Shown: positions 23,950 through 29,420, numbered from the stretch's first letter. The stretch is DNA of 32,000 nucleotides from Ignicoccus hospitalis KIN4/I (GCF_000017945.1 NC_009776.1:360001-392000), one strand, 5' to 3'. Translations and numbers: made by a program. The notes: generated by a model from the letters alone, not told the origin.

Positions 23950-24033
23950 CTCCCCTTCGCCTAGGGCGACCCGAGGAGTCGGACTATCGGCGTTTCCTCA
24001 CCCCCTCGGCTCCTGCCGGAGTCCTCACTTCCG

Positions 24034-24046
24034 GAAACGAAAAAAC
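24034..24046 (-). terminator. Oligo-T terminator candidate downstream of the 61-aa ORF
   Basis: The minus strand reads TGA GCG TTTTTT CG TTTCC. The T6 run (24040-24045) starts 4 nt after the stop codon. Confidence 0.4.
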
Positions 24047-24048
24047 GC

Positions 24049-24234
24049 TCAAGGCTTTATGTAGACTATTATTTCTTCCCCGGTGGCCGGGTCCCTCCTC
24101 CGCACGTAACCGCTGTAGGGGCCGGTCCGGGACCACTCCACCAGCTCTGTGAACCTCTTCAAGGGAGGGTACTGAGGGACCATGGTTATTTTGCTCTCGT
24201 CGAAAACGTCTATCTTCCTAATGATATATACCAT
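24049..24234 (-). CDS. Small hypothetical protein (61 aa)
   Basis: ATG start preceded by a GAGGGGG element, with an oligo-T stretch after the stop. No motif recognised. Confidence 0.45.
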   Translation of the reverse strand: MVYIIRKIDVFDESKITMVPQYPPLKRFTELVEWSRTGPYSGYVRRRDPATGEEIIVYIKP

Positions 24235-24246
24235 GGACTGCCCCCT

Positions 24247-24378
24247 CGTAGAGCTCTTCCCCTTCCCCGGTTAATGCCCTTGCTGAGCGTCCAAAAGCGA
24301 TTTAGCTGTTAGTTGAAAACTCGCTCGGGAACGAGCTCGTGTTGGCGGCCTCCCGGAGCTTCTGGACGTAGAGCTCTT
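24247..24378. promoter_or_regulatory. Two exact copies of CGTAGAGCTCTT (palindromic core AGAGCTCT) spaced 120 nt apart in a divergent intergenic region
   Basis: The copies lie at 24247-24258 and 24367-24378. One is 13 nt upstream of the minus-strand 61-aa ORF and the other 32 nt upstream of the + strand ATG at 24410. Confidence 0.35.
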
Positions 24379-24409
24379 ATCCCGGTACACGGAGGAAGAG
24401 AGAATAAAA

Positions 24410-24892
24410 ATGTTTAAGGAATTGAGGGATAAGTACTTGGAGTACTTGTCAAACACCACTTTCAGCGGCGTGAGGAACGACGTGGTCCGGTCCTTCGAGT
24501 GGAACTTGTTGGCCCTCGCATACAGCTTGAGGAACTCTGAAAAGTCGGAGGCCAAGGAGATCGTAAAGCAGTACCCCCAGAAGTACTACGACTTGCTCGA
24601 GATATACCACAAGCTGAAAGCGATAGATAGGTTGAGCGAAAGGGAGATAATTGAGAAAATAAAGAGGAAGGAATCGAAAATATACGGGATAGTGGTAGAG
24701 TACTATCCGTACTTGAACCACTTGCTGACCGACGACGGGCTGTGGAGCGACCCGGAGACGGATACCTTGATCTTAACTACGATACGGGGGAAGCTCGACC
24801 ACATCTTGGCGAAGTACGCCATCCAAGAAGGTTGGGACTTGTTGATCTTCGAGCTCGTGAGGGCCTTGAGGGCCCGAAGCCGAGGGAGCTGA
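24410..24892 (+). CDS. Hypothetical protein (160 aa); coding signal appears to continue in the -1 frame to 25080
   Basis: ATG start in an A/T-richer segment. The last codons (cga agc cga) are atypical, while the -1 frame reads good codons from about 24874. Confidence 0.55.
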   Translation: MFKELRDKYLEYLSNTTFSGVRNDVVRSFEWNLLALAYSLRNSEKSEAKEIVKQYPQKYYDLLEIYHKLKAIDRLSEREIIEKIKRKESKIYGIVVEYYPYLNHLLTDDGLWSDPETDTLILTTIRGKLDHILAKYAIQEGWDLLIFELVRALRARSRGS

Positions 24893-25080
24893 AAGAGAGG
24901 GTCGACCTAACTTCCAAGAGTTTCGCTGAGATCTCGAGGAAGCTCGAAGTACTGAAAAATACAAATGAGGAGTTCGTGAGGTCTTTGCAAGAGCTGAATG
25001 AGGCGGTGGTGGAGCTGGAGGAGAGGTGGAGGGCTAGGAGGTTGGGCGCAGGGTACTCGAGGGCCTTACTTAGGGCCTGA
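24874..25080 (+). other. Start-less coiled-coil coding segment in the -1 frame relative to the 24410 ORF
   Basis: Reads PKPRELKERVDLTSKSFAEISRKLEVLKNTNEEFVRSLQELNEAVVELEERWRARRL... with host-like codons. There is no ATG/GTG/TTG in frame before the GTG at about 24976. Confidence 0.4.
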
Positions 25081-25087
25081 GAAAAGC

Positions 25088-25095
25088 TTAATTTT
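25088..25095 (+). promoter_or_regulatory. TATA-like element TTAATTTT preceded by a purine-rich GAAAAG (BRE-like)
   Basis: Lies about 32-39 nt upstream of the TTG at 25127. The zinc-ribbon ORF at 20638 shows the same spacing. Confidence 0.3.
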
Positions 25096-25126
25096 CTAGT
25101 GAGACGTTCGAATTTGAGGGAATGTC

Positions 25127-25258
25127 TTGGCCTCGTGGCCCTTCGGGAAAAAGAAGAAGGAGCTCGCCTTGGAAGCCCTCAGCCCCTACGGCGCTGAGGG
25201 GCCCGAAGGGCGGTACGAGGACTTGTTCGAGAGGTTAAGGAGGGCCGAGGAGGGTTGA
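25127..25258 (+). CDS. Small ORF (43 aa), not in the track; may be the N-terminal part of the following propeller gene
   Basis: My translation is (M)ASWPFGKKKKELALEALSPYGAEGPEGRYEDLFERLRRAEEG*. An in-frame stop lies at 25115-25117. The stop overlaps the TTG start of the next gene (TTGA). Confidence 0.4.
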   Translation: MASWPFGKKKKELALEALSPYGAEGPEGRYEDLFERLRRAEEG

Positions 25259-26265
25259 AGCTCGAGCTGTTGTGGACATTCGATCAGCCTAGCAATGGTA
25301 TTAAAGACATGGCCTTCTCGCCCAACGGCAACTTGGGAATAGCCTCCAAAGACCGCTGCGCCTACATCCTCGATCCCAACGGGAACTTGTTGGGGAAGGA
25401 GTGCGGAGGAGGCATTATGGCTGGGGCCGGCTACTCCAACAGAGTGTTCGGCTTCGTTAATACCGATGACTACGTCTACCTCTTCTACGAGGACGGGACC
25501 TTCTGGAAGAAGATAGAGGTTGGAGACAGTCACGATTTAGCAATTGCCCTCTTCGATAACGGCTTCGTGGCTTGTGATGACTATTGCGCCAAGTACGACT
25601 TCAACGGGAACAAGCTATGGGACACTGAGGTTGACGGTGTTGCAGACGTTGTAGTTCACAAGGGCTACGTTTACGCGGCTAACTGGTGGAGCAACAAGCT
25701 CCAAATACTGGACTTGAATACTGGCAGAACAATCAATGAGATAAGCTATGATTACTATTCTGACGACTACTGTTCCGACAGCGTCAACGCTTGTGGAAAT
25801 TACCTAGCAGTAATCGCCGGGGAGCTTTACGTTTACGACATTTCGGATCCGACAAGTCCGAAGCTTCTGTGGAAGAGCAATGGACTGGACGTTCATGGGA
25901 AGCACACCCCGGCCTTCTCTCCGGACTGCAAGTACATAGCAGTTGCAGACAACTATTGGGACGACGAACCGGATGGAAATAACATGCTCAAGATATTCGA
26001 CATAAACGGAAATTTAGTCTACTCTAAGGAGATGTACGGAATTTGGAACGTAGCTTGGTGGAAGGACAGGTTGGCGGTTGGGTACGTGCTCTACGATGGA
26101 CTAATCTATGACGGTGAGGTCGAGATGTACAAAATAATTGGTTACGAACCTCCCCCCGAACCTTCGAGCGCCTCGGAGCCCCTTCCGAACCTCACCGAGG
26201 CCATACCCTGCGGGAGCTCGAGCTCAAGCCCCTCTGGGCCTTCGAGGAGGCAGAAGGAAGGGTGA
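25255..26265 (+). CDS. Beta-propeller repeat protein, paralogue 1 (A/T-richer copy)
   Basis: Repeated strand motifs are FSPNGNLGIASKD, YDFNGNKLW, FSPDCKYIAVAD, IFDINGNLVY and VAWWKDRLAVGY. It is collinear with the next gene, including the near-identical 18-mer ttctc(t/c)ccggactgcaag. Confidence 0.75.
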   Translation: MKLELLWTFDQPSNGIKDMAFSPNGNLGIASKDRCAYILDPNGNLLGKECGGGIMAGAGYSNRVFGFVNTDDYVYLFYEDGTFWKKIEVGDSHDLAIALFDNGFVACDDYCAKYDFNGNKLWDTEVDGVADVVVHKGYVYAANWWSNKLQILDLNTGRTINEISYDYYSDDYCSDSVNACGNYLAVIAGELYVYDISDPTSPKLLWKSNGLDVHGKHTPAFSPDCKYIAVADNYWDDEPDGNNMLKIFDINGNLVYSKEMYGIWNVAWWKDRLAVGYVLYDGLIYDGEVEMYKIIGYEPPPEPSSASEPLPNLTEAIPCGSSSSSPSGPSRRQKEG

Positions 26266-27235
26266 GGAAAGCAATCGCCTCCCCCGGGGGCTCGATAGGC
26301 TTCGCGTCCGGCAGCTGCGGCTACGTAGTGGACGAGAGTGGGGTCTTCCAAGGCGTGGATTGCGGAAACGAGATGATGGACGTTAGCCAAGCGAACGGGC
26401 TCTTCGCCTTCTTGGACGGGGAGGGAAGGTCTACCTCCTCTACGACGACAGCGTGTGGAAGAGGTTGGATGTCGGGGAGGAGTACTCCAAGGCCTTGGCC
26501 CTCTTGAATGAAGGCTTGATCTCTTGCGGCGAGCTGTGCGGGAAGTTCGACTTAGACGGGAACGGCTTGTGGAGCTTTGAACTGGGCGGGGAGGCGGCCG
26601 GGGTGGTCGTAAACAAGGACTTCGCCTTCGTCTTGGATAAGGAGAACAAGAGGCTCTTGGTAGTTGACTTGGACTCCGGGAGGGCAGTTAGGGAGAGGAA
26701 GTACCTCCGAGAGCCCTTAGCAATAGCCTCGTGCGGCAAGTACTTGGCAGTGGCGACTTCAAACAAACTCTTCTTGTACGACGTGGGCGACAGGAGGAGG
26801 CAGAGGGCCCTCTCGCAAGCGAGGCTCGAGCTGGGAACGCCCTCGCTCGCGTTCTCCCCGGACTGCAAGCGGCTCGCGGTCTTGGGCGGGGGGAGACTTC
26901 GCCTCTTGGACTTGAACGGCGAAGTCTTGTGCGAGGCCCCCTTGCCCCGGGCCTCCTCGGTCGCTTGGTGGAGGGACGAACTGATAATAGGGTTCGAGGA
27001 CGGGAGGTTGGCCGCTTACGAGCTCGAGGGCTACAAGCCGACGGTGAAGGTAGTGAAGGAGAGGTCCGTCGATCTCCCGGTCTTGAAATTCTTCCCAATG
27101 GAGGTCAAAGGGAAGGTCTTTGAGGCCGAACTGAAGCTGGTGCCGGAGCCCCTCTCCGGGAGGTGGAGCTGCTCCAAGGTGGGCGAGGGGACCAAGCGGT
27201 CATTTACAAGTGCTGGAGGGACGAGGAAACCATAG
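26262..27235 (+). pseudogene. Beta-propeller repeat protein, paralogue 2, split over two frames (-1 break at about 26421-26425)
   Basis: The first frame reads ...SQANGLFAFLDGE(G). The -1 frame continues GKVYLLYDDSVWKRLDVG. Together these align residue for residue with paralogue 1 (NRVFGFVNTDDYVYLFYEDGTFWKKIEVG). Later blocks FSPDCKRLAV and VAWWRDELIIGF also match. Confidence 0.7.
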
Positions 27236-27951
27236 CCTTGAGGGTTGCGAAGGGCTTCGTGGAGGTCCTCGTGGGGGAGGCGCCAACCGTAACGCCCTCG
27301 CAGTTCTCGAGCTTCTTAAAGGAGGTGTCGAGGCAAGCGCTCCTCAAGCACCCTTACTTGCTGGAGGTGAAGGGCTACTCTGAGGAGTACCCCTTGGTGG
27401 CCTACGAGTTCGCGGACGGGGGGAGCCTGGAGTACCAGCTCGCCCGGGGGTGGGAGCCATTGCCGGAGGAGGCCTTGGCGGTTGGAATAAGGGTCGGGGA
27501 GGCGCTGGAGTACCTCCACTCCCGCGGCTTCGTGCACGGGGACGTAAAGCCCTCAAACGTGTTCGCCTTCACGAAGGGAATAGTTAAGCTTGGGGACTTG
27601 CAGAGCTTGAAGAAGGCGATGGCGAGGACCACGGGGAAGCTCTACTTCACCCCGGGCTTCGCCGCCCCGGAGCAGTACTTCTTGGACTTGAGGGAGCCGG
27701 GGGAGGAGGAGAAGGTAGACTCCTACCAGCTAGCCAACTTGGTGCTTTACTTGCTCAAGAGGGAGAGCGTGGACGGGGAAGAGCTGGCCTCGGGGAACGC
27801 GGACTTGGAGGAGGCCTTGGGAGGGCTAGGGGAGCTGGGGGAGGTATTGAAGAGGGGGCTCAAGGTTAGGCCCTCCGAGAGGGCGAGCGTAGGGGAGCTG
27901 GTGGAGGAGTTCAAGGCCCTCTTGGAGAAGCTCGGGGGAGGCGAGGGGTGA
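27163..27951 (+). CDS. Eukaryotic-type Ser/Thr protein kinase domain protein
   Basis: Catalytic loop HSRGFVHGDVKPSNV, Mg-loop LGDLQS, FAAPEQ (APE), hinge LVAYEFADGGSL and alphaC E in LKEVSRQALLKHPYLLEV. The track start at 27163 (GTG) overlaps the upstream ORF by 73 nt. Confidence 0.8.
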   Translation: MELLQGGRGDQAVIYKCWRDEETIALRVAKGFVEVLVGEAPTVTPSQFSSFLKEVSRQALLKHPYLLEVKGYSEEYPLVAYEFADGGSLEYQLARGWEPLPEEALAVGIRVGEALEYLHSRGFVHGDVKPSNVFAFTKGIVKLGDLQSLKKAMARTTGKLYFTPGFAAPEQYFLDLREPGEEEKVDSYQLANLVLYLLKRESVDGEELASGNADLEEALGGLGELGEVLKRGLKVRPSERASVGELVEEFKALLEKLGGGEG

Positions 27952-28034
27952 AAGGCTTCTACGCTCAGCGCGCCACAGTAAGGTCGGCGGCCCTCAACGG
28001 GCTTAACGGCCGAAGCGCCTTGGAAGTCCTAGCC

Positions 28035-28694
28035 TCACCTCTTAGCCAGCGCCTCCACCACCTTGCCCAGCATGTCAGCCACCAACTTCATCTGGGAGTT
28101 CAGCCCCGCCATCCCCGCCTTCAGTTCGTCCATCGACTGCTCTATGTCGTCCATCCTCTTGCTGAGCTCTTCTTTCAGTTCATCTATCCTTTTGTTCAAC
28201 CTCCCTTCCATGAGCTTCATCTCTTCCCACAACTGGTCGATCTTCCTATTGGTCTCATCGATCCTATTGTTCAACTCGTTCCTGACGTCCTCGATCTTCC
28301 TATTGAGCTCCTCCTTAACCTCGTCGATCCTTTTGTTAGTTTCGTCTATCCTACTGTTCAACCTCTTCTCTACCTCATCTATTCTCTTGTCCAGCCTCTT
28401 CTCAACTTCCCTCAACTCCACTCTGTTGAGCTCTATTTGTTTGGACAGTACCTCGTAGCTCACCTTGGTTTGGTTCAGGACCATGAAGAGCAGGATGAAG
28501 TTCGCTTCGGAATCCGTAATTGGCTTGCCCGCCCTGAGCTTGTCGAGTATTTCTGCGAACTTCTGGGAAGCGTACTGGAAGGCCAAGTCCAGCAGTTGAT
28601 CGGGAAGGGACACGGCCCTTACCCTCCTAGCTTTGTCCGCAATTGTTATAAATAAGTTCAATTCTCTCCGGTCTGTCACAGTCGGCACTTGCAT
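28035..28694 (-). CDS. Coiled-coil protein with a reiterated (R/K)-I-D-E motif
   Basis: KRIDEVEKRLNSRIDETNKRIDEVKEELNRKIEDVRNELNNRIDETNRKIDQL...NKRIDELKEELSKRMDDIEQ. Motif spacing is 11, 7, 11, 11, 7, 18 and 11 residues. The start is uncertain (ATG at 28694 or GTG near 28618). Confidence 0.7.
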   Translation of the reverse strand: MQVPTVTDRRELNLFITIADKARRVRAVSLPDQLLDLAFQYASQKFAEILDKLRAGKPITDSEANFILLFMVLNQTKVSYEVLSKQIELNRVELREVEKRLDKRIDEVEKRLNSRIDETNKRIDEVKEELNRKIEDVRNELNNRIDETNRKIDQLWEEMKLMEGRLNKRIDELKEELSKRMDDIEQSMDELKAGMAGLNSQMKLVADMLGKVVEALAKR

Positions 28695-28732
28695 TCAAAT
28701 AGTAACCCCATCGGGACGGCGGAGTTCTTCAG

Positions 28733-28893
28733 CTTTCCGCCCTCTCCTGAGACTCCACTTGCTGAAACTAGCTTTAAAGGGGAAAGAGATAACAATAACC
28801 TTTCTATCCTCTTTTGAGACTCCACTGAACACGAGAAATGCTTAATCGACAATTCGCTTAAGATCATCTTTCTATCCTCTTTTGAGACTCCAC
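28733..28893 (-). CRISPR. Mini CRISPR-like array: 2 identical 26-nt repeats + 1 degenerate terminal repeat, 2 unrelated spacers (41 and 42 nt)
   Basis: The + strand repeat CTTTCTATCCTCTTTTGAGACTCCAC lies at 28800-28825 and 28868-28893. A 21/26 copy lies at 28733-28758. The minus-strand repeat is GTGGAGTCTCAAAAGAGGATAGAAAG, which has a GAAAG 3' end. The spacers share no similarity. Confidence 0.6.
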
Positions 28894-29170
28894 CGAGCCC
28901 TTCCATATAAAGCCCCAAGGTCTTTCCCTTAAAAGAATTGCGTTCTGCTGTGAATTTACAATTCCTCTGATTTTTCCCTTTATTTGAGAAATTTTTCCTC
29001 TGCCCTTCCCTCCACGATCTTCAGCGTTCCCATGAAAAGATATAAGGGGTTTGAGAGAGTGAATAGTAATGGTGCGCTTTCGAATATAGGATGTTCCCAT
29101 GTGGGCAAAGATGAAAAGGAAATGAGTAAATACAAAGGTTTGGTGATTTGTAATACTTAGGTATCAAAGA
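28894..29170 (-). promoter_or_regulatory. AT-rich putative CRISPR leader
   Basis: This is the most A/T-rich, non-coding-looking stretch in the window. It abuts the intact-repeat end of the array, opposite the degenerate repeat, as expected for a leader on the minus strand. Confidence 0.4.
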
Positions 29171-29315
29171 AAAAGCAACCCAAGGAAGCCTCGGCCCGAA
29201 GGGGCGCTCCGGAAGGGTGGCCAAGGCTAACGAAAGGGAAAGTGTGGACGGGGCAATCGCGATCAAAACCTCAACAGCCCACAGCGCTCTCCAGCTCGGA
29301 AGGAACGACGAGGGG

Positions 29316-29420
29316 TGGAGCCGCCGGCGGGATTTGAACCCGCGACCACCGGCTCTCCGGCCGGTACTCCCAGAGGTACCGGATACAAGGCCGGCGCTCT
29401 GCCAGCTGAGCTACGGCGGC
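29316..29420 (-). tRNA. tRNA-Thr (anticodon UGU) with a 29-nt intron at the canonical 37/38 position and encoded CCA
   Basis: Folded by hand: acceptor GCCGCCG/CGGCGGC, U8A9, D-arm GCTC-AGCTGGCA-GAGC, anticodon stem CCGGC/GCCGG with loop CUUGUAA after removing the intron at 29355-29383, variable loop TGGTC, T-arm GCGGG-TTCAAAT-CCCGC, discriminator U, CCA. Confidence 0.9.

Follow-up and report, generated by a model that had tools for sequence, protein, structure and literature searches.

We studied a 32,000-nucleotide (nt) stretch of the chromosome of Ignicoccus hospitalis KIN4/I (positions 360001-392000 of 1,297,538 bp; 56.5% GC), here termed the window, and in particular an interval of ~5.3 kb at 24049-29315 that contains the genes Igni_0432-0437 and a small locus of clustered regularly interspaced short palindromic repeats (mini-CRISPR) next to a threonine tRNA gene (Table 1). 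An initial annotation of the sequence had read this interval as a compositionally mosaic accessory island that abuts the 3' side of the tRNA and would be an old or partial insertion. The gene lengths and order tabulated for Iho_0431-0438 in a published proteome (Giannone 2011, PMC3149612) agree with the open reading frames (ORFs) seen here. They comprise tryptophan synthase alpha (Iho_0431; trpA) on the left, proteins of 61 (Iho_0432) and 160 (Iho_0433) amino acids (aa), a 336-aa 'WD40 repeats containing' protein (Iho_0434) and a 260-aa protein (Iho_0435), both of arCOG02491, a protein kinase of arCOG03683 (Iho_0436), a 219-aa protein of arCOG03724 (Iho_0437), and an Appr-1-p processing (macro) protein (Iho_0438) on the right. 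That study recorded zero spectra for all six proteins Iho_0432-0437, with both flanking proteins (trpA and macro) detected, named Iho0432-0437 as an unexpressed cluster without peptides and called for its comparative analysis (Giannone et al. 2011, PMC3149612). The cluster consists of the same six genes as our interval, and was presented there without its anatomy; new are the diagnosis of a pseudogene, the identification of the CRISPR module, the traces of recent exchange and a test of integration with a negative outcome.

Table 1. Features of the interval and the adjoining tRNA gene (window coordinates)
Feature	Position	Strand	Remarks
Igni_0432, 61-aa orphan ORF	24049..24234	-	No homologue, no paralogue, 0 spectra
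Divergent control region (putative), two exact CGTAGAGCTCTT copies	24247..24378	.	Copies at 24247-24258 and 24367-24378
Igni_0433 (160-aa orphan, 24410-24892) with start-less -1-frame helical segment to 25080	24410..25080	+	From translation
43-codon upstream ORF	25127..25258	+	Stop overlaps TTG start of Igni_0434; no sign of coding
Igni_0434, intact, predicted 7-bladed WD40-type beta-propeller (arCOG02491)	25255..26265	+	Tail disordered after ~residue 300
Probable propeller-Ser/Thr-kinase pseudogene (Igni_0435 and Igni_0436)	26217..27951	+	Three reading frames: propeller 26217-26423, then 26429-27195; kinase 27196-27951 in the third
Igni_0437, PaREP15-family coiled-coil protein (arCOG03724)	28035..28694	-	33-nt internal repeats
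CRISPR array, three repeats	28733..28893	-	Spacing 67 and 68 nt
Repeat R1; spacer 1; repeat R2	28868-28893; 28826-28867; 28800-28825	-	
Spacer 2; repeat R3	28759-28799; 28733-28758	-	R3 is a degenerate terminal repeat
AT-rich CRISPR leader, ~258 nt	28894..29150	-	By homology to other leaders
tRNA-Thr(UGU), 29-nt intron	29316..29420	-	Rfam tRNA score 62.7 bits

Comparison with congeneric genomes indicates that Igni_0435 and Igni_0436 are what remains of a single dead gene. One congener has an intact propeller-kinase protein of 865 aa that is collinear with the two, its match switching frame twice, and in another congener tandem double propellers (959 and 1158 aa) are collinear with Igni_0434 plus Igni_0435. 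We located frame breaks at ~24880, ~26425 and ~27195, and there may be another at 26175-26217. At ~26425 and ~27195 a single base has been lost from a short G-run, and the break at ~27195 cuts through the Gly-rich loop of the kinase; no start codon covers the first blade of the pseudogene. The kinase domain of Igni_0436 is readily recognized (Pfam Pkinase, E-value 4.8e-19, above the cut-off); nevertheless, its beta3 catalytic Lys is replaced by Arg (IALR aligned with VALK of Nek7), where the two congener kinases compared retain Lys, and with this substitution and a broken reading frame it does not qualify as an active Hanks-type kinase. Contigs from two independent Illumina runs (synthetic metagenomes), which cover 24000-25401, 25526-26002 and 25983-28911, agree with the window base for base, free of differences and gaps, and hence the clustered frame breaks already remarked upon in the initial annotation are not sequencing errors. 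Each of the five frame changes is -1 (frames 2, 1, 0, 2, 1 from the coordinates), a direction that fits a bias towards one-base deletions. We also observed a 90-nt remnant of the kinase C-terminus in I. islandicus (L066:9559-9648, equivalent to G002:1031558-1031647; 57% aa and 75% nt identity), ~1.1 kb past a CRISPR array.

The same -1 changes could be read as programmed frameshifts that fuse a leader peptide and two propellers with the kinase in a product of ~940 aa, which, with the coiled-coil protein and the mini-array, would make up a working operon for sensing or defence, as the initial annotation had tentatively proposed. Besides the uniform frame direction, the intact double propellers and the propeller-kinase fusion of the congeners speak for this possibility, as do RNA contigs that span the region. 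Nevertheless, we hold it to be very unlikely: none of the ORFs yielded spectra, whereas the WD40 paralogues Iho_0008 and Iho_0419 were detected in the same proteome (PMC3149612); the break sites, read by eye, are short G-runs that lack a canonical slippery heptamer; the Arg in place of the catalytic Lys sets this kinase apart from its two congener counterparts; and I. islandicus holds only the 90-nt remnant, which implies that the kinase gene is being lost in the clade. A PADLOC search of the ORFs likewise found no system, returning generic kinase-domain and coiled-coil matches only and nothing for the propellers and orphans. With the kinase broken, no system recognized and the array of standard type (see below), the proposal of a sensing or defence locus was not borne out.

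Upstream of this pseudogene, Igni_0434 is intact and is predicted to adopt a seven-bladed WD40-type propeller fold: its AlphaFold2 model has a pLDDT (predicted local distance difference test score) of 87.6, and Foldseek aligns it with a probability of 1.00 and TM-scores (template modelling scores) of 0.70-0.82 to WDR5-like and designed 7-bladed propellers, its Pfam WD40 score being below the family cut-off. Ten WD40-repeat genes constitute a lineage-specific expansion in I. hospitalis (Podar et al. 2008, PMC2614490), and Igni_0434 and Igni_0435, as arCOG02491 members, belong to this family. Across the genus we found 8-33 matches per genome with a modular organization, the propellers being fused to DUF2341 or a kinase or arranged as tandem double propellers; intact propeller-kinase proteins were found in one congener assembly only. 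Bacterial Ser/Thr kinases fused to WD40 domains are also known, for example PkwA of Thermomonospora. The architecture here resembles PkwA in joining a Hanks-type kinase to a 7-bladed propeller, and differs from it in that the domain order is reversed, with the propeller N-terminal, and in that the copy is a pseudogene. Igni_0434 has a paralogue at genome positions 716624-717559, with aa identity ranging from 69% (tblastn) to 80% (local alignment) and 0.48 synonymous substitutions per synonymous site (dS). The I. islandicus copy is equally close to this paralogue and to Igni_0434. The paralogue lies in the 712-717 kb region, which is among the strongest tetranucleotide outlier regions of the genome.

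The Igni_0434 copy carries a signature of recent exchange between species, which it shares with Igni_0437. The nearest homologue of the latter is EYM_02220 of I. islandicus, named PaREP15 (81% identity), with further PaREP15-named matches. In BLAST alignments over nearly the whole gene, the nt identity to I. islandicus is 77% for Igni_0434 and 80% for Igni_0437, whereas the housekeeping neighbours show no DNA-level similarity to that species. At four-fold degenerate third positions the identities are 0.67 and 0.68, respectively; among 51 ortholog-like pairs, drawn from a background of ~160 kb that represents part of the I. islandicus genome, the Igni_0434 propeller family (0.73) and PaREP15 (0.68) are the only outliers, the other 49 spanning 0.13-0.44 and the full set having a median of 0.32. 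Consistent with this, dS against I. islandicus is 0.66 for Igni_0434 and 0.81 for Igni_0437, whereas trpA and the lysyl-tRNA synthetase (LysRS) gene are saturated, and even against the closest congener the flanking genes have values of 1.0-1.25. The low dS and high four-fold identity of these two genes point to their exchange within the genus after the species split. Their ratios of non-synonymous to synonymous change (dN/dS) against I. islandicus, 0.24 for Igni_0434 and 0.11 for Igni_0437, suggest that both have been kept under purifying selection and they look functional.

Several further observations concern the relatives of these genes in I. islandicus. Two of its PaREP15 copies (L067:12205-12807 and L069:10356-11186) are 99% identical over aligned codons, the duplication being confined to the gene itself, and the copy at 378 kb has a stop codon at the place of the I. 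hospitalis N-terminus. Propellers and PaREP15 copies twice occur within ~7 kb of each other; with unrelated genes between them and no CRISPR remnant, we considered this too weak to call a linkage. The LysRS gene adjoins propeller genes in I. islandicus (L068, 694-712 kb); in the closest congener (L059) it is ~2 kb away from trpA, and in I. hospitalis next to the 413.5-kb CRISPR array, positions that hint at an older common neighbourhood since broken by rearrangements.

The right end of the interval is a genuine CRISPR module by all sequence features considered: two exact 26-nt repeats, which end in ATAGAAAG on the minus strand, and one degenerate repeat at regular spacing, unique spacers of 42 and 41 nt, a common leader, and cas genes elsewhere in the genome. 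The leader is 89-95% identical to those of 11 other arrays, with the similarity ending sharply near 29150, and the same repeat occurs at 13 loci, each a leader-plus-array module (at 89.0, 260.4, 290.6, 388.7, 413.6, 557.1, 795.1, 915.5, 952.5, 1009.9, 1029.8, 1057.2 and 1180.5 kb of the genome); published counts for I. hospitalis are nine arrays and 37 cas genes. The array reported in the initial annotation as CRISPR-like is present, and this qualifier is too weak for a genuine member of a 13-copy family. With cas1 genes at 954.5 and 1012.3 kb, it might be active in trans through cas genes elsewhere. Neither spacer has another match in the genome, and their 28-nt cores have no exact match in IMG/VR. 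Dispersed CRISPR arrays with one common leader are also found in Sulfolobus. The two arrays of N. equitans, which have one leader in common, likewise show a conserved leader of high AT content, degeneracy of the leader-distal repeat, and repeats that end in a ATTGAAAG-like handle (PMC3491384). Unlike that case, the small modules of I. hospitalis number thirteen; most are remote from cas genes, and about half are within 500 nt of a tRNA gene.

This last feature bears on the tRNA that closes the interval. Its anticodon loop, read by hand, is UGU (Thr), and its 3' 42 nt are identical to those of the tRNA-Thr(CGU) at genome position 2006; the ARAGORN anticodon calls ('???' and 'Ser tga') were rejected given the loop sequence and the likeness to other tRNA-Thr genes, and an intron was detected. 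The 3' end of the tRNA gene faces the CRISPR leader at a distance of 158-165 nt. Genome-wide, 6 of the 13 CRISPR modules are no more than 500 nt from a tRNA gene (permutation p ~5e-5), as are 3 of the 11 arrays examined in I. islandicus. A unit composed of leader, array, trailer and tRNA-Lys(CUU) is present in two inverted copies (G000 556830-557979 and 1056893-1057714; ends 88-89% identical), which shows that CRISPR modules can be copied along with a tRNA gene; as two of the six tRNA-near modules stem from this one unit, the independent cases number 5 of 12, roughly estimated to be still clearly more than chance would give. Among the three loci with a leader facing a tRNA, the intervening sequence is not homologous. 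Hence, the tRNA neighbour here goes with the usual context of the CRISPR module and not with an insertion event.

The 3' ends of tRNA genes are targeted by archaeal integrative elements such as those of the SSV and pNOB8 types, and the interval resembles these in its position and its cargo of accessory genes; it differs in having no integrase, no attachment (att) repeat and no virus or plasmid genes. The initial annotation, having itself seen neither an integrase nor a convincing direct repeat, had proposed an old or partial insertion. Its negative observation is confirmed. No integrase was found on the island ORFs with Pfam, PHROGs or NCBIfam, and the only PF00589 tyrosine recombinase match in the whole genome is at 493.5 kb, 104 kb away. 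The longest match to the tRNA-Thr inside the window, 11-12 nt, is at chance level, and nowhere in the genome does a tRNA-derived repeat of at least 16 nt lie within 40 kb of a credible tRNA, the one 18-nt match belonging to a doubtful tRNA call. Integration at the 3' end of the tRNA is thus unsupported.

A decayed virus or plasmid that entered the 3' end of the tRNA-Thr with the propeller, kinase and coiled-coil genes and the mini-array as its cargo, and later lost its integrase and distal att site, would account for the adjacency to the tRNA, the lineage-specificity, the absence of detected protein and the recent horizontal exchange of two genes, and some archaeal viruses and plasmids do carry mini-arrays. 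We nevertheless regard such a remnant as unlikely. In addition to the missing repeat and the remote recombinase, matches of the block ORFs to virus families are limited to a generic kinase and coiled coil; the leader is not foreign but the one resident throughout the genome; what lies closest to the tRNA is the CRISPR module, which is near tRNAs at other loci too; the pseudogene has a host-typical GC content at third codon positions (GC3); and the two exchanged genes are unlinked in I. islandicus.

Synteny speaks to the accessory nature of the interval rather than to its mode of origin. As a whole, the block is absent from all five congeners examined. In the closest of these, trpA is kept together with a 667-aa gene, and the macro gene with the genes on its right, as two conserved blocks; both are joined to unrelated genes, and the orthologue of the tRNA-Thr(UGU) lies between yet other genes. 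The patch thus sits at a synteny breakpoint between two conserved blocks. A search for an empty site is uninformative here, as the closest relative has trpA, the tRNA and the macro gene each among other neighbours; with synteny blocks across the genus being 1-5 genes long, the genomes are too rearranged for synteny to reveal an insertion. The label 'accessory', on the other hand, is upheld by the lack of conservation in the five congeners, the orphans, the zero spectra and the two genes with a recent-exchange signature.

Composition tells of parts that differ in history. The A/T-richer stretches around a GC-rich block, noted initially, are evident in the GC fractions of 0.517 (24049-26100), 0.615 (26300-27950) and 0.47 (28000-29200); it is the flanks (~0.58-0.65) that are GC-rich. 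As a whole, however, the block lies within the genome-wide range, and the claimed compositional mosaic stands for local differences only: with a GC of 0.544 (the genome averages 0.565) it ranks at the 20th percentile among windows of its size, and in tetranucleotide distance at about the 87th, so that the deviation from the genome is confined to sub-blocks. GC3 is 0.81-0.88 in the propeller-kinase pseudogene and the flanks, 0.66 in the Igni_0434 propeller and 0.73 in the PaREP15 gene Igni_0437. The mosaic can accordingly be attributed to a long-resident pseudogene of host-like GC3 set among exchanged genes, orphans and a leader that are AT-richer. An alternative, in which the interval belongs to the stable core and looks odd through local compositional noise only, would agree with its overall GC and tetranucleotide usage; given that no congener conserves the block, that it contains orphan ORFs and a pseudogene, and that two of its genes are outliers in synonymous-site identity to I. 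islandicus, we find this exceedingly improbable.

At the left end, the unknown ORFs of the initial annotation proved to be orphans indeed. Igni_0432 has no homologue besides itself in an index of 5.8 billion proteins and no paralogue in the genome, and exhaustive HMMER searches of billions of proteins yielded no credible homologue of the 160-aa Igni_0433, the matches obtained being weak sums over perfect tandem repeats in unrelated giant proteins, which we judged spurious. Igni_0433 and the helical segment that follows it are probably one gene of ~222 codons with a one-base deletion near 24875, a suggestion drawn from their translations since there is no homologue for comparison. The divergent spacer between Igni_0432 and Igni_0433 is 175 nt long and has one copy of the 12-mer CGTAGAGCTCTT upstream of each ORF; the two are 120 nt apart, the whole 1.3-Mb genome has four copies, and the core AGAGCTCT is a palindrome. 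The repeat pair described in the initial annotation is therefore real, and its role as an operator is putative. A scan for bacterial-type promoters and terminators found nothing above shuffled controls.

Bringing together the gene identities, the frame breaks, the leader homology, the synonymous-site closeness, the non-conservation and the lack of an att repeat or integrase, we consider it likely that the interval is a flexible, non-essential patch, built piecemeal by recombination, exchange within the genus and decay, and not by site-specific integration. Its history would have involved four kinds of material, the order of events being inferred from the present state of the parts: two strain-specific orphan ORFs with a common palindromic 12-mer in their divergent promoter region; a propeller gene and a PaREP15 gene that, well after the two species had diverged, would have come in or been traded with the I. 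islandicus lineage, and that have since stayed under purifying selection; a long-resident propeller-kinase gene that is now dead, with one-base deletions, no start codon for its first blade and Arg where the catalytic Lys would be; and a CRISPR leader with three repeats and two spacers, one of the 13 dispersed modules, which cas genes elsewhere may serve in trans.

Certain observations weigh against this reading. Contigs of an RNA-seq run span most of the block (window 24000-28893) despite the absence of peptides; genomic DNA contamination is possible, and the word silent describes no more than the block's proteins in cultures grown as in the proteome study. Assembled small-RNA contigs join the repeat to spacers of other arrays, and none is specific to this array. 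The uniform -1 direction of the frame changes is also what programmed frameshifting requires. As for the exchange, the synonymous-site background samples part of the I. islandicus genome, the comparison fixes neither direction nor donor, and the I. islandicus copies of Igni_0434 and Igni_0437 are at separate, unlinked loci, so that there is no sign of the patch having moved as one unit.

Thus, the cluster left open by the proteome study would be flexible-genome material, and not a hidden operon or prophage. The occurrence of CRISPR modules next to tRNA genes more often than expected by chance is a small but testable point. A doubtful extension of it is that the dispersed CRISPR modules and neighbouring tRNAs act as recombination landing pads, which gather genes exchanged between Ignicoccus species of a common habitat, Igni_0434 and the PaREP15 gene among them, and where old genes decay; if true, the patch would be an example of integrase-free islet building in Ignicoccus. 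Equally small but testable is the point, suggested by the closeness of Igni_0434 and Igni_0437 to their I. islandicus counterparts, that even so minimal and integrase-poor a genome would seem to trade genes with another species of the genus.

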